Shown: positions 2,524 through 24,806, counted from the first letter of the stretch. The stretch: 25,385 nt of DNA from a virus (IMGVR_UViG_3300016722_000154:1-25385), one strand, 5' to 3'. Numbers and translations: made by a program. Notes: a model not told the origin generated them from the letters alone.

Positions 2524-4326
2524 CTACTGATATGCTGTTTCTACGTTGGCAATAACCCTCATAAACATGTCGCGCAGATAGGCTTCGATCTGCCGTTCGT
2601 CCATTTTTTGTAACGTTGTATTCTGGGTGTTAATTCCACCCTTCACAAAACTGTCGATATTGATATTAATGGTTTTTATCTGCTTTGCACTCCCGGTTAT
2701 CTTATTGGTAAGATCGTCCCCGGTAGGCGTAGCGGGGTTTTTATTTTTATCATTAGTATTAGCTTGGGTTGCAGCCCAAGGATTTCCGCGCGCTTCTAAA
2801 ATTCGTTGTCTTATATCTTTAAATGCTTCTAAATTACCCCACGCCCATTCTTTAACCTCAGTACCCGATTCGGGATGTTTATAGATAGCCATCATTTTGC
2901 GATACTTATCATCTAACTCACCCCACGTTTTATCCCATTCCGATTTTGACATTTTATCAGCACGATCAATCCTGGAATCCCAGTATCCCACTTCCTTACC
3001 CTTTACCCATTCTGATCTTGACAGTTCTTTATCTTTCCAATGATTAATATTCATCCAGTGGTATGTGGTTTTATCTATATTTCCGGTTAATCTCCCGTAT
3101 ATCAAAACTAAATTTTGGAGATGTTCTGTTAATGGAAGGATAAGATTCTTTTTAATAACCATCCATGTTGGCATCGCTGTTTCTCCAAGCCTTACCATAG
3201 ATGTCCTAAGCCTGTTATTTATCATTTCGTTAACATAGCCAAGGTTGTTTTCGGCATTTTCCTTGATTTTTGAAAAATCCACTTCTACGTTATCAAACTG
3301 TTTGAGGGTTGCCAGTGTTTGGCCGCTTCTGTCGGAAGCTATTGCTAACAATGCGTTCAGCCCTTCACTTCCCTGGAATTGCCCCCGGATTTTGGAAAGG
3401 TCGTAGTCTGTTTTAGCCGTCAGTAGCTTATGGTTTAATTCGGTAACTATCTGGCTAAACTGTTTCATCTTTCCCGCTTTATCAAACACTCCGTTGCCAC
3501 CCAGTACATCCTTAAATGTTTTTTGAATCTGAAGTCTTGAGAGATCGGTAAACAGGGATTTTGTTAGGGTCGCCGCCTCTTCCGGGCTCTTTGTTTTTAC
3601 GGTAAATAAAGCAAAGGCCTGGTTTGCGCTGTTGTAGTCCTGTGCAGCCCCTTTAGCAGCTCCGGCGAAGTCGCTTTGTACCTTAGCCAGCTGATCGTAG
3701 GTAACCAGAGCGGTACTCATTGTTTTGTGGCTGCTTTCCAGATATTTATTGACATCGTTTGTTGAAAATCCAAAGTTTGCCATTGCTTTTGCCGCTCCAC
3801 GGATGGTTTCGTTAAAATCTGACTTAACATACTGGCTGAATTTCCCCACCTTTCCAACAATCGCTTCCGCAGCACTGCCATACTTCCCGGTTAATGACTG
3901 AACGTCGAACACTGCCCCCGCCGTTTTATCAGGGTCAAATCCTTTTTTGAAAGAGAAATCAAGAATTTCATTTTTTAAATCAGATATTTGCCGTTTGCTT
4001 TTGTCAAGGTTTAAGTTTTGTATATTTAAAAACGAGTTATCGAATTGCTCCGCCGCGGCAATCGCCTTTTTATATCCGATTCCCAAGGCAATCACCCCCG
4101 ATATAAGCCTTACATAAGGGTTGCCTAATAATTCCATCGCTCTTCCAAAACCTGGGATTTCATCCTTCATTGCCTGGAATGCTTTTATGTGCGATAATTT
4201 AAGGTCTGCCAGTCGGTTTTTTATATCACGCACATTACTATTTACAACTTCTTTAGCTTTTGTAAATCCGGTTTTTAACCTTTCCTTCATTTCAAGAATT
4301 AACTGTACTTTTGCTTGTCCGTCCAT
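2524..4326 (-). CDS. tail tape measure protein (600 aa)
   Basis: Long Ala/Lys-rich helical protein with TP901-like core ('GKMKQFSQIVTEL', 'GSEGLNAL') and C-terminal 'KTININIDSF'; ATG 4326 preferred over the ORF-track start at 4416. Confidence 0.85.
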   Translation of the reverse strand: MDGQAKVQLILEMKERLKTGFTKAKEVVNSNVRDIKNRLADLKLSHIKAFQAMKDEIPGFGRAMELLGNPYVRLISGVIALGIGYKKAIAAAEQFDNSFLNIQNLNLDKSKRQISDLKNEILDFSFKKGFDPDKTAGAVFDVQSLTGKYGSAAEAIVGKVGKFSQYVKSDFNETIRGAAKAMANFGFSTNDVNKYLESSHKTMSTALVTYDQLAKVQSDFAGAAKGAAQDYNSANQAFALFTVKTKSPEEAATLTKSLFTDLSRLQIQKTFKDVLGGNGVFDKAGKMKQFSQIVTELNHKLLTAKTDYDLSKIRGQFQGSEGLNALLAIASDRSGQTLATLKQFDNVEVDFSKIKENAENNLGYVNEMINNRLRTSMVRLGETAMPTWMVIKKNLILPLTEHLQNLVLIYGRLTGNIDKTTYHWMNINHWKDKELSRSEWVKGKEVGYWDSRIDRADKMSKSEWDKTWGELDDKYRKMMAIYKHPESGTEVKEWAWGNLEAFKDIRQRILEARGNPWAATQANTNDKNKNPATPTGDDLTNKITGSAKQIKTININIDSFVKGGINTQNTTLQKMDERQIEAYLRDMFMRVIANVETAYQ

Positions 4327-4349
4327 AATTTTAAAAATATTTGTGTGTT

Positions 4350-4383
4350 TTTGTCGAAAACGTGAATTTTGATTGTATCTTTG
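4350..4383 (+). promoter_or_regulatory. consensus Bacteroidota promoter antisense to the head operon
   Basis: TTTG (4350-4353), 22-nt spacer, TATCTTTG (4376-4383). Confidence 0.7.
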
Positions 4384-4387
4384 CATC

Positions 4388-4455
4388 AGATCGGGATGCG
4401 TCCCGAACTTCCCCAAACGGCTAACCGGTTTTTCCTGTTAGCCGTTTGGCTTTTA
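4388..4455 (+). ncRNA. candidate ~65-nt two-hairpin small RNA converging on the MuF-toxin stop codon
   Basis: Follows the promoter; hairpin TCGGGA-TGCG-TCCCGA (4391-4406); 13-bp hairpin 4413-4425/4437-4449 followed by CTTTT; no ORF. Confidence 0.55.
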
Positions 4456-5784
4456 TGGTAATCCTAATAATTTTCTTGTGTATTTCATTGGTACTCCTGT
4501 TTTATTTATTATCCATACCTGATTGATATTAGCCGATTGCTTCATCTGCCCGCGCACAGCATCAATAATATCATTTTCATTCATTTTATCGGTAAGATGT
4601 AAAACGGCAACACCCGCCTGATTTTCCGCGCTTCTTATCCTGTTATGAATAGCTGTTTTTGTTGGTTTCGGGTGCTTTATTTCTGCAATAATTTTATTAT
4701 CAATCAAAGCATCTGGATTTTTACCCTTTATAAAGTCTTTTGTCCCATAAATTTTTTCACGGATTTTATCATCATTCTTACCAAGTTCCGGCAATAACTT
4801 TACGTTATATCCTGCGTCGGCAAGCAACTTAGCCGTAGCTACATTATTTGCCATTTCCTCTATGCCGTGTAACAGGTGAACTTGTACAGTTTTGCCATTA
4901 TCGGCTTTGTATACCGTATTATAAGCGGCATCGGCTGGTAAGGTCTGTAAGGATTGTCTTAACACATCAGCCGGTACCCCATCGTAATACGGATGTCCTG
5001 CCGGGAAAATCAGTCCTGATTGAGCCAGATTAGTACGGAACATGGGCGGGATAGGGACGTCCGGAATTTCTTTTGTTTCTTTGGCGTTGCTGTTTGGTAA
5101 CTGGTTTGCGCTGCACCGGCAACCCCAGCCGTTGGGCGGGAAATGTGTAGCCCAGAAAGCATCATCCATTTTCTTTATTATACCTTCCAGGGCACGGTGA
5201 GTATCGCGCACGCGGGCATCACCCACGGTGCTATACTGAAGAAAGGGCATAATCTTTTTGTTAGCCTCAAACTCACTCCAGCGGGCGGCCATAGTAGCTG
5301 AACCAACAGCCTGGTTGTATTCCGTCCGTAACCAGGAAGAGTTATATTTTCCGTTAATTGCACCGGCGGCATCTTTAAAGTCGCCAAAACTCCTGAGTTT
5401 ACCGTTTTCATCCTTTAAAGCCAGCGTCATGTCCCGCATCTGCTGATAATTCTTAGCGGCACTAAAGTTCCATACATCGCGGGTTAACCGGGTAAGCATT
5501 GCCGCATCCGGGGTATCCCAATCTATCTGCAGGAAATTTTTGCCGTAACCATCAAAAACCTGGCTTTGCAGAACAGAGCCTACCAGCTTCAGTATTCCGG
5601 CATCGGTAAGCCCGGCGGTACCATTCCATATTTCATCCAGTACCCTTTCCAGTTCCGTGGTAAGGTTCTGGGTAAAAGAAGCGGGTAAGTCAGCCTCAGC
5701 GGTGGGACGTAATCCACCACAGCAGGGACATGGCTCATATAGTTGTTGGGGGGCGGCTGTGGCCGTTGGGCCGTCCCCTATTGA
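4453..5784 (-). CDS. MuF (SPP1 gp7-like) minor head protein with C-terminal PD-(D/E)xK CdiA-like nuclease domain; probably expressed as a -1 frameshift fusion to portal
   Basis: MuF motifs 'WLRTEYN', 'YSTVGDARVRDTH', 'FPPNGWGCRC'; C-terminus 'KNPDALIDNKIIAEIKHP...SAENQA'; frame is open upstream to about 5862, first ATG only at 5499. Confidence 0.85.
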   Translation of the reverse strand, partial: SIGDGPTATAAPQQLYEPCPCCGGLRPTAEADLPASFTQNLTTELERVLDEIWNGTAGLTDAGILKLVGSVLQSQVFDGYGKNFLQIDWDTPDAAMLTRLTRDVWNFSAAKNYQQMRDMTLALKDENGKLRSFGDFKDAAGAINGKYNSSWLRTEYNQAVGSATMAARWSEFEANKKIMPFLQYSTVGDARVRDTHRALEGIIKKMDDAFWATHFPPNGWGCRCSANQLPNSNAKETKEIPDVPIPPMFRTNLAQSGLIFPAGHPYYDGVPADVLRQSLQTLPADAAYNTVYKADNGKTVQVHLLHGIEEMANNVATAKLLADAGYNVKLLPELGKNDDKIREKIYGTKDFIKGKNPDALIDNKIIAEIKHPKPTKTAIHNRIRSAENQAGVAVLHLTDKMNENDIIDAVRGQMKQSANINQVWIINKTGVPMKYTRKLLGLP

Positions 5785-5790
5785 AAATTT
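5750..5790 (-). other. candidate -1 programmed ribosomal frameshift signal (portal to MuF)
   Basis: In-frame heptamer A AAT TTT (5790-5784), 5-nt spacer, stem GGGG(A)CGGC (5778-5770) / GCCGCCCC (5757-5750); the -1 frame is the MuF frame. Confidence 0.75.
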
Positions 5791-7040
5791 GCCGAAAAAG
5801 CGGCCTTTGGCTTCCCCGGTTCCGGGGTGGTTGGCGTTTTCTTCTTTCCTATAATTGGAAAGTTAAAGCGATTACTCACCCAGTCCGGATCAATTTCATA
5901 AGATTGTAACGCCTCGTTTACAATTTTCCAGTGATCGCTTATACCGATGCTTTCCGTGCGGTCAAACGCAAATACGCTGGTATCTGTAAACTTAAAACCC
6001 CAATTCCGTAGCAGCGGGATAAGTTTTCCATTAACGAAAAACTCTATCATCCGGCGGTCGCTTTCGGCTATCTTTTCATCAAGGGTGCGTTCATGAACTT
6101 CGCTTTGGCTCCGGGAACTCCCGTTGTCGATCACCATGGTGCCACCAAGGATATTTTTACTAATCTCGTCGTTAGCCAGGTTGATTTGTTCAAGAAAAAC
6201 CTTATGAGGGTCTCCCTTTTGAACTGAGTCGTGTATGGTGATTTTAGTTCCTTCGGGTAATATTGCCTGTGCCGCCTGCCCAAGGTTTTTCATTCCCTTC
6301 TGGATTTTGTCTATTGTCAACTTATCCGTCCGGGTTGTTTCGGCAGATATCAGAGGAATGCCAAATCTTTCAGCAAAATCAGCCCATACCTGCTGGGCGT
6401 TACGCTTCCAGATTAATTGAGGAATTATATTATTCAATATCCCGTATTTACTACTGACGCTTTTTAGTTCAATTACGTTTTTTGCAAAAGCGGGGTCTGT
6501 GTAGTTAACTCCTTTGTTGCCTGCCACCTCAAAGTAAATCATTCCGGTTTGTGGCACACAGTTCCGGCGTGGGATAAGCTGCCAGGTGTTGGTGGTTGGA
6601 TCGACAAGCTCCATGACAGTATAATAACGAAAAACACTATCCAGGAGATACTCCATCATGTTATACCACCATTCCGTTTGAAAATAGGCGGTTTGCTCAG
6701 GAATTTCCGTCCCGGATTTAGCGTCCTTAACCATTGATCGCCGCGACATCGTGGCTGCTTTCCGTATATTGATAACGGCAGCCAGGTGTCCATCCGTTAA
6801 AAGATTATCATACAAATCTTGCTGTAGGTACCAACGCGGATCGTCTATATCATCCGTGGCGTCCATAGATTCACGCCACTTTTTTATATCCGACCGGGTT
6901 TTGTCGGTAAATTCTTTAACTAACTGAACCATTATTCCACTTGCGCCCTGGCCAGAAGCTAATGAAACCGGATGTTTTTCCGTTTTGTAGAGACCCCACA
7001 GGTAACTTTTTGACTGTTGTATATTATTTATAATATCCAT
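5778..7040 (-). CDS. portal protein (Mu gp29 / DUF935-like)
   Basis: 'DGHLAAVINIRK', 'WADFAERFGIP', 'NDEISKNILGGT', 'GSSRSQSEVHER'; lies between terminase and MuF. Confidence 0.9.
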   Translation of the reverse strand: MDIINNIQQSKSYLWGLYKTEKHPVSLASGQGASGIMVQLVKEFTDKTRSDIKKWRESMDATDDIDDPRWYLQQDLYDNLLTDGHLAAVINIRKAATMSRRSMVKDAKSGTEIPEQTAYFQTEWWYNMMEYLLDSVFRYYTVMELVDPTTNTWQLIPRRNCVPQTGMIYFEVAGNKGVNYTDPAFAKNVIELKSVSSKYGILNNIIPQLIWKRNAQQVWADFAERFGIPLISAETTRTDKLTIDKIQKGMKNLGQAAQAILPEGTKITIHDSVQKGDPHKVFLEQINLANDEISKNILGGTMVIDNGSSRSQSEVHERTLDEKIAESDRRMIEFFVNGKLIPLLRNWGFKFTDTSVFAFDRTESIGISDHWKIVNEALQSYEIDPDWVSNRFNFPIIGKKKTPTTPEPGKPKAAFSANFQ

Positions 7041-7043
7041 GTC

Positions 7044-7259
7044 TTATTTTGTTTTATAGAGTGCAACTTCTTGTAACTTTACCCAGTCTATTGTTATCAT
7101 CTTCTGTTTTCTCATTTCTTTGAGTTGATGAGCTGAAAATACCTTTAGTTTCTTTTGCCAGCGAATAACATAATATTGCCGTTTTGTGGCTTTGTGGAGT
7201 GTGTTGGCTTTGTGCTTTGCGTAGCGAAAGCGGATTGTAAATAATAAGAATTTTATCAT
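7044..7259 (-). CDS. small basic hypothetical phage protein
   Basis: Fills the operon gap between the gp36-like gene and portal; ATG at 7259. Confidence 0.6.
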   Translation of the reverse strand: MIKFLLFTIRFRYAKHKANTLHKATKRQYYVIRWQKKLKVFSAHQLKEMRKQKMITIDWVKLQEVALYKTK

Positions 7260-12724: not shown

Positions 12725-13162
12725 ATGGTAAAAGAAAAAAACATTCCTGATCCGGATGTTTCCGAACAGGAAAAAAACACAGAAACCCAGGGAGCCACGG
12801 CCCCAGCAGAAACCCCGACCTCAGAAGCTGACGAAACCCCTAAAACTCCCGATGCTCCATCTAACGAACCCCCAGAGGATTCAGTTGACGAGACTTCGGC
12901 TGATGAAACTCCTAAGGAAACCCCTAAAACTCGAAGGATGCCGGTAAAACCTCTTTCTAAACCTGAAATCAAATCAGTGAAGGAAGAACTTGCAATAATG
13001 GATCGACTCAAAATAGATACCATGTACAAAAACTCCAAAGGAGAATATTTCACCCAGGAGGGACTTGCAGTGTATAGCGAAGGCGGTAAAAAAGACAATG
13101 TGTCCACTATATGTAAAGCTGATTTAGAAACGATTATTAAATCATTGAGCGATGCCGATTAG
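12725..13162 (+). CDS. hypothetical protein with acidic Pro/Thr-rich disordered N-terminus
   Basis: ADETPK repeats; compact C-terminal part 'YKNSKGEYFT'; overlaps the sheath start. Confidence 0.7.
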   Translation: MVKEKNIPDPDVSEQEKNTETQGATAPAETPTSEADETPKTPDAPSNEPPEDSVDETSADETPKETPKTRRMPVKPLSKPEIKSVKEELAIMDRLKIDTMYKNSKGEYFTQEGLAVYSEGGKKDNVSTICKADLETIIKSLSDAD

Positions 13163-14411
13163 AGGATTTGAACTATCAAAAGGCGCTGTAGGTGTAAGCA
13201 CAAGCGATTCTGAAGATAATATCTGCATGTTGCTCGTTAACGCTGATGGGCCTAAAGCCGGCGAAACATTCACGGATGGTAAGGTATATCCACTTACTAA
13301 ACTGAAAGATGCTGAGACGTTAGGTATCACCGAGCTTTATGATAAGAATAATAATGTCCGCCTATGGCGTCATATTTCAGAATTCTACCGCATGGCTGGC
13401 GAAGGCACAAAGCTTTATTTGCTAATCGCTTCAAAAGATAAGACGCCTAAGCAAATGATTGAAACCTATGGTCAGCAAATGATTATTGCTGCCAAAGGTG
13501 CCGCTTACTATATGGGTGTGGCTTACAATCCTCTTGCTGCTTACGCTCCTACCTACGTGGATGGGCTTGAACAGAATATCCGTGAAGCTATCGCCCCTGC
13601 TCAGGCTCTGCATGAATGGAGTTGGAATACCGATCGCCCGATTAATATTTTTCTTGAAGGTCGTGGCTTTAATGCCGCTACCGGCGCAGCCGCTTTAGAT
13701 CTTCGTAACATCATGGATGGAGCCGCCCTCTTAGCTGCTACACACGTGAGTTTGTGCATCGGGCAGGATTGGGATTATGCAGATACCCTCACTGGTGAAT
13801 CTCAGAAATTTGCCGACGTGGGCACTATGTTGGGCACTAAAGCCGCTATTTCTGTTAACAGGAATATTGGTGAAGTGGAGAGTTTAGATATTAGCTCTGC
13901 CACAAAAAGCCGCTGGCTTACTGCCGGGCTATCTAATCATAAAACCATCGAGGAGATGGATTCTGAGCTGTCCGATCTGGATGGTAAGGGTTACGTCTTT
14001 GGAATGAGTTATACCGGCATTACCGGAATACGCTGGAATGGCGATCATGTCTGTGCTCCTATCATTGTGGATGACGATGGCTTTATTTCAGTTAGTTCCA
14101 TCGGACATGGCGCAACCCTCAACAAAGGTGCCCGTATGCTTCGTAAAAAGCTGTTGCCAAAGCTAAAATCTACCGTGCCGGTTGACTCTACTACCGGCTT
14201 CTTGCCAACCGGTATTATTAAATATTTTGAAAATTTAGGTGATCAAGCATTTGATAATATGGGCAATGAAATTAGTGCCGGAAAAACTATTGTTGACCCT
14301 AAATCGACTCTTCTAACCGGAGATAAATCCCTTAACGTTGATTTTATTTTGATTCCTACATTTTCAATCCTGAAAATTAAGGGAACGCTTAACCTTAAAA
14401 CTAAACTGTAA
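13152..14411 (+). CDS. tail sheath protein (DUF2586-like)
   Basis: 419 aa; 'HISEFYRMAGEGTKLY', 'LDGKGYVF..SY.G..G..WNGDH'; precedes the tube gene. Confidence 0.85.
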   Translation: MPIRGFELSKGAVGVSTSDSEDNICMLLVNADGPKAGETFTDGKVYPLTKLKDAETLGITELYDKNNNVRLWRHISEFYRMAGEGTKLYLLIASKDKTPKQMIETYGQQMIIAAKGAAYYMGVAYNPLAAYAPTYVDGLEQNIREAIAPAQALHEWSWNTDRPINIFLEGRGFNAATGAAALDLRNIMDGAALLAATHVSLCIGQDWDYADTLTGESQKFADVGTMLGTKAAISVNRNIGEVESLDISSATKSRWLTAGLSNHKTIEEMDSELSDLDGKGYVFGMSYTGITGIRWNGDHVCAPIIVDDDGFISVSSIGHGATLNKGARMLRKKLLPKLKSTVPVDSTTGFLPTGIIKYFENLGDQAFDNMGNEISAGKTIVDPKSTLLTGDKSLNVDFILIPTFSILKIKGTLNLKTKL

Positions 14412-14830
14412 TGCCAGTAATTAACAGAAACGGAAAAGCGTACGACAGCGGAGACGTTGCCGTAACAATATTTGGAAGAAATGATTACGAAGTAACCGAA
14501 ATTTCTTACAACACCGAACAGGAGCACCAGCCCAATCACAGCCTTGGCAGCAACGATGCAACTTCTTATTCGATGGGGAAAAAAACAAATTCGGCAACGA
14601 TTACTTTTCGCCTTGCTTCGATGTCAGTAATCGAAAAGGCTGCAGCTGGTAATATCCTTAGGATAAAACCATTTCCAATCAATGTTACATTGCTGAATGA
14701 GGATAACGATATCATCAATGATACTATTACGGCAAAATTTCAAAACCAGGGCCGTGACATTGGCGGTGATATGGATTTGAAAAAGCAATGCACATTATTT
14801 GTATTAGGTATTGATTTTAATAACGCTTAA
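14411..14830 (+). CDS. tail tube protein
   Basis: 139 aa, 'INRNGKAYD', 'EISY', directly after sheath with TAATG overlap. Confidence 0.8.
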   Translation: MPVINRNGKAYDSGDVAVTIFGRNDYEVTEISYNTEQEHQPNHSLGSNDATSYSMGKKTNSATITFRLASMSVIEKAAAGNILRIKPFPINVTLLNEDNDIINDTITAKFQNQGRDIGGDMDLKKQCTLFVLGIDFNNA

Positions 14831-14839
14831 TTAAAAGCT

Positions 14840-15184
14840 ATGAAAAAAGAAACAGTAGAATTACCGGCAGGAGTAACTTCGGAAATGGTCGCCGCATGGA
14901 AAGAACGTTATGGTGAAAACAAAGTGAAGCAGGCTCTGCTTCCATTAACGGAAGACTGCAACGATTATTTGTCTGTAATCGTCCGGGCTCCCGGTCGGAA
15001 AGAAGCCTCGGAATTTGAAAAGTGGATCGATAAAAATCCCGACAAAGCAAAGGAAATTCTTGTCAATACCTGTCTTTTAACGAATAAAGATGAAGTGAAG
15101 ACAAACGAATACCTGTTCTTTGGTGCCGCTGATGCTATCATGAACCTCTTACAAGTACCGAAAGCGATCATAAAAAACTTATAG
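14840..15184 (+). CDS. tail assembly chaperone (G-like)
   Basis: After tube; 'AAWKERYG'; ends in slippery A AAA AAC TTA TAG. Confidence 0.8.
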   Translation: MKKETVELPAGVTSEMVAAWKERYGENKVKQALLPLTEDCNDYLSVIVRAPGRKEASEFEKWIDKNPDKAKEILVNTCLLTNKDEVKTNEYLFFGAADAIMNLLQVPKAIIKNL

Positions 15185-15402
15185 AGGGCTATCCCTCTAT
15201 TGACGTAGTCGAGGATGAGGATAGCCTGACGAGACAGGATGCTAATTTTATAAGACGCGGGGATGCGATGATAAGTTATTTTCTGAACATCCCCTTTCCT
15301 GAAAATTTAGACGATGACACCTGGATGGAAAAGTTCCGGCAGGTTGAATGGCTTTCAGAAATGGGAATATTAGGAATTAAAAAGAAAAATGCCTCAAGTT
15401 AA
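14840..15402 (+). CDS. tail assembly chaperone frameshift product (GT-like, ~187 aa)
   Basis: -1 frame open from 15178 to TAA 15400-15402 (LIEGYPSIDVVEDED...PENLDDDTWMEKFRQVEWL...), filling the gap to the next gene. Confidence 0.75.
15172..15200 (+). other. -1 programmed ribosomal frameshift signal
   Basis: A AAA AAC (15172-15178) followed by perfect hairpin ATAGAGGG-CTAT-CCCTCTAT (15181-15200). Confidence 0.8.
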
Positions 15403-16042
15403 CATAAATACGATTTTAGCCCGCTACCAGAGCGGGTTTGGTTATGTGGCCGGCAACGTCGCCTCTGTGGTGGCCAACCGGCTATGGGCTAAATTTGTTA
15501 ACATGCCCTTATATGCTGAGCGTCTTGATGGGGGGACATCTAATGAAAGCATTGATCTTTTTCCCGTAACTGATATTCATTTTGCCGAAGCTGAGTTTAA
15601 AAACTCAAAATCCGGGAATAAATACAACTTCGGAACCGATATTGTTAGCTATGGAATTGGTAAAAAATTTCTTGCTCCACCTTTAATGCTCTCGTTCACC
15701 AGGGATAAAAATGTCTGTCGTACACCTATTGATAAGTCCGAAATAGAGGTGATTGAACATTTTGGATTAAAGCCTTGGTCAATTAAAATACAGGGAATTA
15801 TTGTGGATATAGACAATCACCAATACCCTGGCGATTTATTACATGTAATAAATAATATGTTTTTAGAGTGGGGGACTTTTGCTGTTACCGGATCGATATT
15901 TAACGACCTTGATATCTGTGAGGTTTTTTTTGATTCCGGGTTTGAAGTCAGTTTTGTAGAAGGATATGCCGACACGGTTAAGTTTTCGGTAAATGCTATC
16001 AGCACAACACCTATTGAAATTTCAAAAGTAAATTTAAACTAA
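15389..16042 (+). CDS. tail/baseplate-associated protein (DUF6046-like)
   Basis: 'PPLMLSFTRDKNV..TPI', 'W.IKIQGII', 'YP', 'F..NAIS' pattern; position before the hub gene. Confidence 0.65.
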   Translation: MPQVNINTILARYQSGFGYVAGNVASVVANRLWAKFVNMPLYAERLDGGTSNESIDLFPVTDIHFAEAEFKNSKSGNKYNFGTDIVSYGIGKKFLAPPLMLSFTRDKNVCRTPIDKSEIEVIEHFGLKPWSIKIQGIIVDIDNHQYPGDLLHVINNMFLEWGTFAVTGSIFNDLDICEVFFDSGFEVSFVEGYADTVKFSVNAISTTPIEISKVNLN

Positions 16043-17019
16043 TGTTTACATACGCCGAACCCTGTGCACGTATTAGAATTGGTAGTGATACTGAATTCTT
16101 AGAATTCAACTCCGTCAACAAAATTGTGATTGATGAGAGTGTGAAGGAGCTTGGCAATAAAGCAACCATTACCCTGCCAAAAAATTACGAAAAACTGGAG
16201 GGTAAAAGCCTGCTTGATTTACTAAAAACAGGCGATAAGGTAAAAATATGGTTAGGGTATGATGGACAGCTAAATCAGGAATTTTCCGGCTACCTGCAGG
16301 AGATCGAAAGCGAAGCGCCGCTTGTACTTCATGCTGATGATGAATTCTATCCGATGAAGCGTAACAATTTTACAAAGGCGTGGAAGTCAATTACCCTTAA
16401 GGATTTGTTAAAATATATCGCTCCTGATTTTAAAATCAGTTGTCCTGATGTAAACTTAGGCTCTTTTCAGATTTCTGGCGCATCTACTTATAAAGTTTTA
16501 CTTGCTATACAGGAACAATATGGCTTTTATACAAGTCTCCGCTCTGGGGTACTTACTTGTTTGTGGCCCTTTAAAATTGGAATGTCGGAAACGATTCACA
16601 CATATACTTTTTTCACACAAACTGTGAAAAAAAGTAATTTAAAATATCATCGTGTTGAAGATGTAAAGGTGCATGTGCGCGCAACCTCGAGTCTCAGAAC
16701 CGGCAAAAAGTCCATTAAATATGAAACCGGAAACAGGGAGCACGAATCAAGCCTTTATGAGATAAAGATTCCGGGCGCCACCATGGCAGAACTTAAAAAG
16801 TTTGCTGATGCTAAGTATAACCAGCTATGTTTTGATGGTTATTCCGGCTCAATTACAGGTTTTGGGATTCCATGTACACATGCAGGAGATACTTTAAAAC
16901 TGGTAAACTCGGAAGAAAAAGACAAGGAGGGTAATTATCTGATTGAATCTGTAAAAATCACCTACGATGTTAACTCGCCTATTTTTGATCGTGAGAACTT
17001 TTTAAGCTTCAAAGTATGA
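16042..17019 (+). CDS. baseplate hub / late control D-like protein
   Basis: 'ATITLPK', 'GDKVKIWLGYDG...EFSGY', 'GYSGSITGFGIP', 'GNYLIESV'. Confidence 0.8.
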   Translation: MFTYAEPCARIRIGSDTEFLEFNSVNKIVIDESVKELGNKATITLPKNYEKLEGKSLLDLLKTGDKVKIWLGYDGQLNQEFSGYLQEIESEAPLVLHADDEFYPMKRNNFTKAWKSITLKDLLKYIAPDFKISCPDVNLGSFQISGASTYKVLLAIQEQYGFYTSLRSGVLTCLWPFKIGMSETIHTYTFFTQTVKKSNLKYHRVEDVKVHVRATSSLRTGKKSIKYETGNREHESSLYEIKIPGATMAELKKFADAKYNQLCFDGYSGSITGFGIPCTHAGDTLKLVNSEEKDKEGNYLIESVKITYDVNSPIFDRENFLSFKV

Positions 17020-17585
17020 GTGGAGAATCAATGGCCGCATTAGCGCAAAAGGCGATAGAAAAAGTAAAAAAAGGCAAAAATCTTCCTGTTATAAGTGAAG
17101 GTGTTGTTACTTCCGTTGACCGCGACACTCGAACCTGTGAAGTTGAACGAGAGGGCGCTCCACAGCTTTATGATGTACGCCTGAACGCCTTCCTGGAATC
17201 AGGAAACGATGTAATAACGGTATATCCCAAAAAAGGGAGCAAGGTGTTGTGTACAACGATAGAGGGTGATCAGGCAGATGCCTATATTTTAGATTGCACA
17301 GACATTGAAGAAATATCCGGGCAAATTGGAGATGTAAAAATAAAGATGACCACTGACGGAATTGTCTTTAATGAAGGTAAAATAGGTGGGATGGTAAAGG
17401 CTAATGAGTTAAAAACTCAGCTTGACAAGCTGACTAAGCGTGTAGATGATCTCATCAATGCTTTGAAGTCAACAACTCCTGATAGCGCAGGTGGAACATT
17501 TAAAGCGAGCTTAACACCTTTACTGTCGTTAATTATCAATAAAGAAGATTTTTCAAAAATCGAAAACGATAAAGTAAAACATTGA
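17016..17585 (+). CDS. baseplate spike / gpV-like protein
   Basis: OB-fold-like N-terminus 'GVVTSVD..TCEV...DVRL...PKKGSKV'; ends 'KVKH'. Confidence 0.7.
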   Translation: MSGESMAALAQKAIEKVKKGKNLPVISEGVVTSVDRDTRTCEVEREGAPQLYDVRLNAFLESGNDVITVYPKKGSKVLCTTIEGDQADAYILDCTDIEEISGQIGDVKIKMTTDGIVFNEGKIGGMVKANELKTQLDKLTKRVDDLINALKSTTPDSAGGTFKASLTPLLSLIINKEDFSKIENDKVKH

Positions 17586-17586
17586 T

Positions 17587-17901
17587 ATGGCTACAGAACT
17601 AAGAACCGATATAATGCTTGATGATGACGGCGATTTGGCTGTTTCGGCTGATGGTGATTTTGTAGTCGGAAATAGTGACGAGCAGAATGTAGAGCTTTTA
17701 TTAGTCGCTACCCCGGGGCAATTTAAGCAATACCCCGGGATAGGGATAGGATTAGAATATGAGCTAAAAAAACAGGATAACAATGCCGCTTCAATTAAGC
17801 GACGGGCGCAGGTTAATCTGACGGCTGACGGGTATAAACTTAAAGATATCTCACTTGATAAGACAGGTAATTTTAATATCGACTTTGACATAAACTATTA
17901 A
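17587..17901 (+). CDS. baseplate wedge protein (gp25/gp46-like)
   Basis: 'DGDFVVGNSDEQNVELLL...PGQFKQYP.IGIGL'; 104 aa. Confidence 0.65.
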   Translation: MATELRTDIMLDDDGDLAVSADGDFVVGNSDEQNVELLLVATPGQFKQYPGIGIGLEYELKKQDNNAASIKRRAQVNLTADGYKLKDISLDKTGNFNIDFDINY

Positions 17902-23999: not shown

Positions 24000-24806
24000 A
24001 TGAAAACAGAAACAATAAAAATGAAGACGCCTATCAGTTATTATGGTGGCAAGCAAACTTTATGCAGCCGTATAGCTGCTTTAATTCCAGAACACAGTCT
24101 TTACTGTGAACCCTTTTTCGGCGGCGGCGCTGTGTTTTTTGTCAAGCCTAAAGAGGTTAGTAAAGTAGAAGTGATTAACGATACCAATAAGGAGTTGATT
24201 AACTTCTATAAAGTAGTTCAGAATGATTTTATAAGCCTTGAAAAAGAGGTGAGGATAACGCTTCACTCAAGAGATTTACACCGTAAAGCAAGCGTGATTT
24301 ATAACAATCCGGACATGTTCAGCGAAGTAAAAAGAGCTTGGGCGGTGTGGGTATTAGCCACCCAAAGCTTCGCTTCGATAGTTGATGGCTCCTGGGGTTA
24401 TGATATCAACACCCGGTGCACCTCAAAGAAGATTATGAATAAGAGGGATAGTTTTACCGAAGAGTACGCTATACGCCTTCAGGATGTACAAATTGAGTGT
24501 ACAGACGCTATCCGGATTATCACCAGCCGTGATACTGAGCAATCCTTCTTTTACTGCGATCCACCGTATTTTCAGGCCAATATGGGGCACTATGCCGGGT
24601 ACACCTTAAAAGATTTTGAAACGCTATTGCAATGCCTTTTAAATATCAAAGGAAAATTCATCTTATCATCTTATCCATCGCCCATTTTAGAAGAGTATGT
24701 AAAGAAAGGGGATTGGAGCCAAAAAACATTTGAGATGAGCGTGAGTGTTGCTAAGGTAAACCGGCCAAAAAAGACAGAGGTGTTAACCGCAAACTTTTCG
24801 ATTTAA
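24000..24806 (+). CDS. DNA adenine methyltransferase (D12/Dam-like family)
   Basis: 'PISYYGGKQ', motif I 'EPFFGGGAV', 'VINDTN', catalytic 'DPPY'; alternative start 24021. Confidence 0.92.
   Translation: MKTETIKMKTPISYYGGKQTLCSRIAALIPEHSLYCEPFFGGGAVFFVKPKEVSKVEVINDTNKELINFYKVVQNDFISLEKEVRITLHSRDLHRKASVIYNNPDMFSEVKRAWAVWVLATQSFASIVDGSWGYDINTRCTSKKIMNKRDSFTEEYAIRLQDVQIECTDAIRIITSRDTEQSFFYCDPPYFQANMGHYAGYTLKDFETLLQCLLNIKGKFILSSYPSPILEEYVKKGDWSQKTFEMSVSVAKVNRPKKTEVLTANFSI

Follow-up and report, generated by a model that had tools for sequence, protein, structure and literature searches.

A putative small RNA resembling a tRNA acceptor end lies in the immunity slot behind a CdiA-type MuF tip of a Mu-like phage

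The stretch of viral DNA analysed here (the window; 25,385 nt) is a segment of a Mu-like phage of the Bacteroidota type, and its minus strand carries genes for terminase, a gp36 adaptor, portal, MuF, tape measure and neck proteins. The Mu-type portal gene (5778-7040, minus; PF06074, E = 3e-63) is followed by the gene for a MuF minor head protein of 348 aa, counted from its first in-frame ATG (4453-5499, minus; PF04233, E = 3.8e-19), which puts the N-terminal MuF domain beside the portal. The tape measure gene comes next (2524-4326, minus; PF10145, E = 8e-13); its start at ATG 4326 is conserved, as relatives use the ATG of MDGQAKV and the upstream frame is broken in the related locus L002, and an ORF caller pushes it back to a TTG at 4416. 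This gene sits between MuF and a neck gene, far from the tail genes at 13152-17901, in an order that is kept in close relatives; elsewhere the neck gene follows MuF. A D12-class adenine methyltransferase gene is found near the right end of the window (24000-24806, plus).

MuF polymorphic toxins (Jamet et al. 2017, PMC5576092; Apk2/IapK, PMC12226406) lie behind the portal gene and combine a variable C-terminal toxin with a downstream immunity slot, as in the window. A small immunity ORF directly downstream is usual for such toxins (89.4%); in the window this ORF is absent. The accessible text of both papers makes no mention of Bacteroidetes or of frameshifting. Here, the MuF frame is open upstream of the first ATG and runs, with no ATG, GTG or TTG start, into the end of the portal gene in the -1 frame. 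A slippery heptamer, A AAT TTT (5784-5790, minus), is located two codons before the portal stop, and among 77 MuF loci (defined below) 37 have it at the same position and frame: the portal stop codon ends 13 nt further on, and MuF lies in the -1 frame. By tip class it occurs in 14 of 22 CdiA-type loci, 14 of 16 LPD3/PBECR-type loci, 8 of 16 loci with other tips and 1 of 23 without a tip, counts in which lineage and tip status are confounded. The fold after the heptamer is stronger than that at loci where MuF has its own start (median -17.3 versus -6.3 kcal/mol); the window's own downstream hairpin does not exceed shuffled sequences. In Porphyromonas phage BK068094.1, portal, MuF and tip form a single in-frame fusion. 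As judged from these sequence features, a programmed -1 frameshift likely produces a portal-MuF-toxin fusion. The region concerned, with a hairpin after the portal stop, spans 5735-5795 (minus) in the window and 2205-2250 in L007, and is seen in many other loci.

The last ~155 aa of MuF (4453-4920, minus) form a tip that we predict to be a CdiA_C-type PD-(D/E)xK nuclease acting on tRNA. The first-pass annotation of this DNA had described an AT-richer C-terminal extension with a PD-(D/E)xK pattern and expected a profile or structure search to return CdiA_C, and both points were borne out: GC content is 35-38% in the tip against 46-52% in the MuF core, the motif residues are D263, E273 and K275 (numbered from ATG 5499), and the tip matches Pfam CdiA_C (PF18451; 4495-4722) with E = 5.4e-12 and 46.2 bits (cut-off 26.6). 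An AlphaFold model of the tip, built from 34 tips, reached a pLDDT of 96.7, and its nearest fold was 4G6V_A, the CdiA-CT of Burkholderia pseudomallei 1026b (Foldseek E = 4.3e-6; Z = 12.1, rmsd 2.5 over 118 aligned residues), with the next entry at Z = 6.7. A tip profile search of the PDB also led to 4G6V (E = 1.2e-7); phmmer with the single tip sequence gave no match there.

Within the Bp1026b catalytic set (E187, D214, D223 and K242), D214 and D223 align with D263 and E273 of the window tip, and the E187 position is occupied by N219, with E215 one turn earlier. As read from the alignment, an equivalent of K242 is absent and the canonical K275 is present instead; since K242 is not conserved, activity of the window tip would rest on the canonical E-x-K. 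The tip differs from Bp1026b CdiA-CT/CdiI (PDB 4G6V; PMC9990079, PMC9086364), with which it shares Pfam family, fold and PD motif, in having E-x-K where Bp1026b has a displaced lysine, in sitting on a phage head protein rather than being delivered by CdiA/CdiB, in its ~20% identity, and in the lack of a CdiI. CdiA-CT of Bp1026b cuts tRNA-Ala at the acceptor stem, as stated in the accessible text of a review (PMC9086364), whereas the tips studied here have predicted Cys-, Gly- or Thr-like targets. From the fold and from the shape of the RNA described below, the MuF tip is predicted to be a tRNA acceptor-stem nuclease.

Between the MuF stop codon (4453-4455, minus) and the tape measure ATG lies a gap of 126 bp (4327-4452) that holds no ATG-started ORF on either strand. 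On the opposite strand it carries a possible -33 box, TTTG (4350-4353, plus), 22 nt ahead of TATCTTTG (4376-4383, plus), a -7 box of the Bacteroidota sigma-A type; the -33 spacing depends on this single TTTG. In Flavobacterium the -7 box occupies -12 to -5, according to the accessible part of PMC9723704, and for this reason we place the predicted start site at 4388. A sigma-70 promoter scan did not detect the window promoter, the scanner being blind to promoters of this type. The predicted product is a non-coding RNA of ~68 nt (4388-4456, plus), convergent with MuF and overlapping its stop codon. It begins with a 5' hairpin whose core (4391-4406) can be extended until 4388 pairs with 4409; U-C-C follows at 4410-4412, and together these nucleotides (4388-4412) look like an acceptor end. 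The remainder (4413-4454) consists of a 13-bp terminator-like hairpin (4413-4449) and a tract of only four U, which reads C-UUUU-AU on the plus strand. This anatomy agrees with the first-pass annotation, which had listed an ORF-less gap, an opposite-strand promoter of the form TTTG-N22-TATCTTTG, a short hairpin plus a 13-bp terminator-like one, and a U tract on the plus strand only.

The 69-nt unit folds with -33.2 kcal/mol (z = -6.6), and none of 200 shuffled sequences folded as well. It is present once in the window, downstream of MuF and on the opposite strand. In an Rfam search the best E value for the window region was 4.5, with every score below the gathering threshold, and 20 related loci gave no match. 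In the contigs of four sequencing runs, one of 227 nt spans 4281-4506 at depth 2; it shows neither strand nor ends and speaks neither for nor against a transcript.

The first-pass annotation had also named an alternative immunity protein, a basic 71-aa ORF between gp36 and the portal gene (7044-7259, minus; pI 10.7, no Pfam match). We rejected this candidate as unlikely: tblastn gave matches in 2 of 84 loci, which are both close relatives, and the closest CdiA loci lack the space for such an ORF.

To place the gap in a wider context, we searched part of a viral collection with a MuF profile and took the best 80 of ~596 confirmed loci, which with earlier ones made 87; removal of eight duplicates or near-duplicates and two unparsed loci left 77. 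Tips were classed by Pfam into CdiA-type (22 loci, three of them assigned by alignment and our own profile), LPD3/PBECR-type (16, three by eye) and other tips (16, six of which have no informative Pfam label, the labelled ones being papain, ADP-ribosyltransferase or peptidase-like), next to 23 tip-less MuF loci. The element was scored by a rule blind to tip type: a TAnnTTTG on the opposite strand, 25-130 nt past the stop codon, a folded RNA, and no abutting ORF over it. It was present in 22/22 CdiA-type and 15/16 LPD3/PBECR-type loci, 0/16 loci with other tips and 1/23 tip-less loci; as the loci are related to one another, Fisher p values overstate the support for this pattern. The four classes are scattered over the MuF tree (22 changes; 11 for the CdiA label, at least 7 of them forced), and seven independent pairs (starred branches) all point in the same direction (median sign-test p = 0.016). 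Covariation of the RNA with toxin type across MuF loci, which had been suggested as a check, was therefore observed, both in these counts and in the reverse searches below.

None of the 22 CdiA-type tips is followed by a downstream immunity ORF, the ORF-less gap of the window included. By contrast, all 16 other tips have a flanking ORF. Behind nine of them (L024, L061, L066, L067, L075, L079, L082, L086 and L087) which include papain, ADP-ribosyltransferase and peptidase-like tips, the same box stands 178-245 nt out and is followed by a 60-85-aa convergent ORF. The remaining seven have an abutting same-strand ORF, which in L037 is possibly just the next structural gene. These ORFs mark the slot as the site of candidate immunity genes, and we therefore read the convergent unit as encoding a protein for some toxins and a non-coding structure for RNases. 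Candidate immunity ORFs on the opposite strand escape same-strand searches; phage p00 (L345, 3668-3919) has an annotated convergent ORF of this kind.

The convergent layout suggests another role, that of a cis-antisense (type I-like) silencer which pairs with the 3' end of the MuF mRNA, or whose convergent transcription keeps leaky expression of MuF low in the lysogen. Type I systems with a convergent 3' overlap are known, the RNA would be fully complementary to read-through late mRNA, and in 26 of 41 CdiA-type loci with the box the terminator hairpin reaches into the ORF of the toxin. However, the overlap with the MuF ORF is only ~3 nt in the window (0-39 nt in relatives), and a silencer would serve peptidase tips equally well, yet these have ORFs instead of the element (0/16). 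Antisense action needs neither a shape matched to the nuclease nor compensatory base pairs, and it could not stop a protein delivered by the virion. We consider a silencer unlikely.

A protein search gave 43 non-redundant CdiA-type tips (<80% identity), among which L277, identical to the window, represents it; 8 of 53 loci had been found by the RNA pattern alone and were excluded from this set. The -7 box lies 25-130 nt behind the stop codon in 41 of the 43; the two loci that lack it (L153 and L155) have an abutting small ORF in its place. L154, a Pfam match outside our own profile, likewise lacks the box and has a 72-aa ORF. In the 41 box-bearing loci a hairpin is closed at +1/+2 in 38 and missing in three, compared with 94 of 600 background boxes. 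These numbers bear on another reading of the gap, in which it holds a mere terminator or attenuator with a chance box, while immunity is provided by a protein elsewhere or is needless because the tip is inactive. TAnnTTTG is indeed frequent, with 19 copies in the window, and the short 5' hairpin folds weakly by itself (z = -2.0). Against this stand the fixed register of the box and the first pair, the strand of the U-rich tail after the terminator (that of the RNA in 35 and that of MuF in 5 of 41 loci) and the absence of the element behind 22 of 23 tip-less MuF genes. An inactive tip does not fit the PD..[DE]xK pattern, present in 34 of 43 tips, and the one protein considered elsewhere, the basic ORF at 7044-7259, is missing from most CdiA loci. 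A mere terminator is thus distinctly improbable.

Three loci (L036, L019 and L018) have an additional hairpin before or after the acceptor-like unit, which in L036 is a short 5' hairpin ahead of a Gly-like end; perhaps these are processed or tandem RNAs. The isolated Elizabethkingia phage TCUEAP3 (L156) carries the element at 3515-3590, with a Trp-like end.

The 5' hairpins resemble tRNA acceptor ends in several respects. N-C-C directly follows the hairpin in 21 of 38 loci, compared with 4 of 94 background boxes and 30 of 296 shuffled hairpins, and 17 of the 38 lack it under the blind rule; the nucleotide before C-C is U in 23 cases and G in nine. A match to a tRNA end of at least 6/7 was found for 22 of 38 hairpins (11 of 94 background, 66 of 296 shuffled), scored against tRNAs from three host genomes of which two, G402 and G403, have incomplete tRNA sets. 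The RNA end of L103, GCGA..UCGC-U-CCA, equals that of tRNA-Gly in its own host genome; those of L009 and L095 equal tRNA-Cys ends and that of L013 a Thr end. The Trp end of L156 matches 7/7 but goes on with G-C-U, and the UUCC/GGAA-G class reaches only 5/7 against Asn, its own host G402 included. Because a MAFFT alignment of the 40 RNA 5' ends contained too many gaps for counting pairs, covariation was scored in 14 equal-length hairpins, which include the close pair L001/L002: seven of eight pairs vary on both sides, the score was reached by 0 of 500 shuffles and it lay above all slid controls. The percentage paired in these hairpins is circular, as they were chosen by fold.

The RNA of the window belongs to the Cys-like class but has A1-U72 and, at 3:70, an A-A mismatch; its best agreement with a host tRNA end is 5/7. 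No tRNA with A1-U72 plus U73 was present among those read from the three hosts (with the G402 and G403 sets incomplete). Going by its sequence, the window's copy is an imperfect mimic. A different target for the mimicry would be the 3' end of 16S rRNA, a helix followed by ACCUCC: host 16S rRNA ends in ..GAACACCUCCUUU, and ACCUCC occurs in 7 and CCUCC in 10 of the 41 RNAs. Yet ACCUCC is absent from 34 of 41, the window's RNA among them, the ACC is paired within the RNA, the Gly-, Thr-, Leu-, Trp- and Asn-like ends match tRNA only, and the nearest fold of the tip is a tRNase. We regard mimicry of 16S rRNA as very improbable and retain tRNA as the model.

Searches in the reverse direction, from RNA to toxin, gave the same association. 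The acceptor-like motif alone had 118 matches, of which 17 close a hairpin, and a CdiA-type domain lies upstream of 12 of these 17, compared with 2 of the 101 others (39 loci have <350 nt upstream). A covariance model of the acceptor-like RNA recovered 11 of 28 box-bearing CdiA loci on which it had not been trained, and 0 of 62 other sources (E <= 0.1). Two loci depart from the pattern: in L183 (901-939) a Cys-like RNA follows a peptidase-like tip, which has a small ORF as well, and in L252 a Cys-like RNA has no nuclease within the 300 nt covered; both are possible orphan immunity RNAs. A pattern search for more copies in the three host genomes produced two matches, compared with one control match.

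Between the window and L004, nucleotide identity is 96% in the MuF core and falls to 68% in the tip and 71% in the RNA and box, rising again to 86% beyond. This contrast of core and tip, together with the scatter of tip classes over the MuF tree, identifies the C-terminal domain as the exchangeable toxin domain of a MuF polymorphic toxin, and the tip and RNA appear, from sequence comparison, to be swapped as a single cassette on the MuF scaffold.

We consider it probable that the RNA acts as a tRNA-fragment decoy and thereby confers immunity against the tip nuclease. The observations behind this reading are the family and fold of the domain, the anatomy of the gap, the compensatory conservation of the hairpin, the way in which the element tracks RNase-type tips, and the match between RNA shape and tip. 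In the proposed mechanism, the promoter would be fired by host sigma-A, both in the lysogen and directly after DNA entry. Nucleotide +1 of the RNA would pair as tRNA position 1 does with position 72; N73-C74-C75 would continue into the terminator, leaving no free CCA, so that the RNA would not be charged. It would then occupy the active site of the nuclease as a poor or sacrificial substrate. An RNA antidote would act without the need for translation, which would suit a toxin that attacks translation. As the window's class is most like tRNA-Cys, its predicted target is tRNA-Cys or, more widely, tRNAs with U73. The first-pass annotation had allowed the RNA either to neutralise or to guide the nuclease; the substrate-mimic part of that proposal fits better than its "type III-like" and "guide" parts, given a convergent RNA that is present in one copy and has the shape of a tRNA acceptor end.

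The same comparative data would fit an RNA that binds the tip for another purpose, either within a switchable toxin-antitoxin module, which would help to maintain the prophage or provide abortive defence against other phages, or as a cofactor packaged with MuF. At E <= 0.001 the CdiA-type tip has 2,837 relatives, among them many short, apparently stand-alone matches of 134-220 aa, and the orphan copy in L183 points the same way. Here, however, the tip forms part of a virion protein encoded in the head operon and is probably made late only, and ordinary small ORFs fill the same slot for other tips. We give such a module or cofactor only a small chance and keep immunity by a decoy as the preferred reading.

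Protein toxins checked by RNA are known. ToxIN-type antitoxins are repeat arrays that precede the toxin gene in the same operon. As far as the accessible accounts of type III toxin-antitoxin systems (ToxIN; CptIN, PMC4627078; AvcID, PMC10511110) and of the AbiF RNA (10.1101/2025.04.15.648962) go, they share with our prediction the control of a protein by an RNA. Unlike the type III antitoxins, the window RNA is a single copy that lies downstream and convergent, has its own promoter and the shape of a tRNA fragment, and shows no repeat array or pseudoknot; its toxin is joined to a virion protein. The phage tRNAs that counter anticodon nucleases (PARIS, PMC11464382) are likewise tRNA-related RNAs directed against a tRNase, but in the accessible text they are full tRNAs opposing a host defence nuclease, whereas the window RNA only resembles a tRNA fragment and accompanies a toxin of the phage itself. 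For MuF and CdiA toxins, the immunity factors described in the accessible text of the papers cited here are all proteins. Literature joining MuF toxins to RNA antitoxins, or describing tRNA-fragment decoys as immunity, was not found in a search covering few subscription journals, although both kinds of system have been described separately. The element itself is a real feature, and its predicted RNAs would represent new families. If true, an RNA decoy in the immunity slot would explain MuF toxins that seemingly have no immunity, link polymorphic toxins to RNA antitoxins, and provide natural RNA inhibitors of tRNases together with testable functions and targets for CdiA_C tips, with their 2,837 relatives, and LPD3 tips. 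It bears on the role of virion-borne MuF toxins and on how phages survive them.

The element behind LPD3/PBECR-type tips takes another form, one long hairpin. A 7-nt Y-U-N-N-N-R-N loop on a stem occurs in 10 of 15 of these RNAs, compared with 2 of 22 CdiA RNAs, although chance probably accounts for two of the ten and several of the loci are closely related. In L016 the sequence CGGU-UUGCAAA-ACCG compares with CGGU-CUGCAAA-ACCG of the host tRNA-Cys. A reverse search with the Tyr-like loop yielded 105 distinct sequences among the 120 of ~610 matches listed; among these, 36 are structured, and an LPD3-like domain lies upstream of 33 of the 36 (a CdiA domain of none), compared with 1 of the 69 others. 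A model of LPD3 weakly resembles colicin D, BrnT, MqsR and RelE, with Z only up to 5.6 and mostly BECR-type toxins in the top rows; Foldseek returned no match at E <= 0.001. Together with the RNA, this suggests that LPD3 is an anticodon nuclease. In a 401-genome sample, four of five LPD3 genes lacked a box up to 130 nt from the end of the frame read, with the frame of L339 probably misread and the box of L342 just past 130 nt; L343, from the same sample, has the element without an anticodon-like loop.

A catalogue of candidate structures (PMC10690425, supplement) contains DNAVirus_4052, a 48-nt structure from five sequences of Bacteroides phages, located <=25 bp from LPD3 genes. Compared by its catalogue entry, it may be the anticodon-like sister RNA; it is catalogued there with no function. 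The files of this study that we searched hold no CdiA_C or PF18451 entry.

Taken together, we lean slightly towards a general picture in which Bacteroidota Mu-like phages carry polymorphic toxins whose small-RNA immunity would copy the attacked part of the tRNA (acceptor ends for CdiA_C, anticodon loops for LPD3/PBECR), so that the RNA would reveal the tRNA target from sequence, with the toxin joined to the head by a -1 frameshift from the portal gene. Anticodon-like loops behind LPD3-type tips (Tyr GUA, Cys GCA and Glu) are found in L072, L077, L081, L083, L016, L041, L073 and L349-L464. In L344 (3557-3785) and in L069 (~200 nt past the stop codon), a structured region of ~200-230 nt with no clear ORF separates a PBECR2-like tip from an opposite-strand box.
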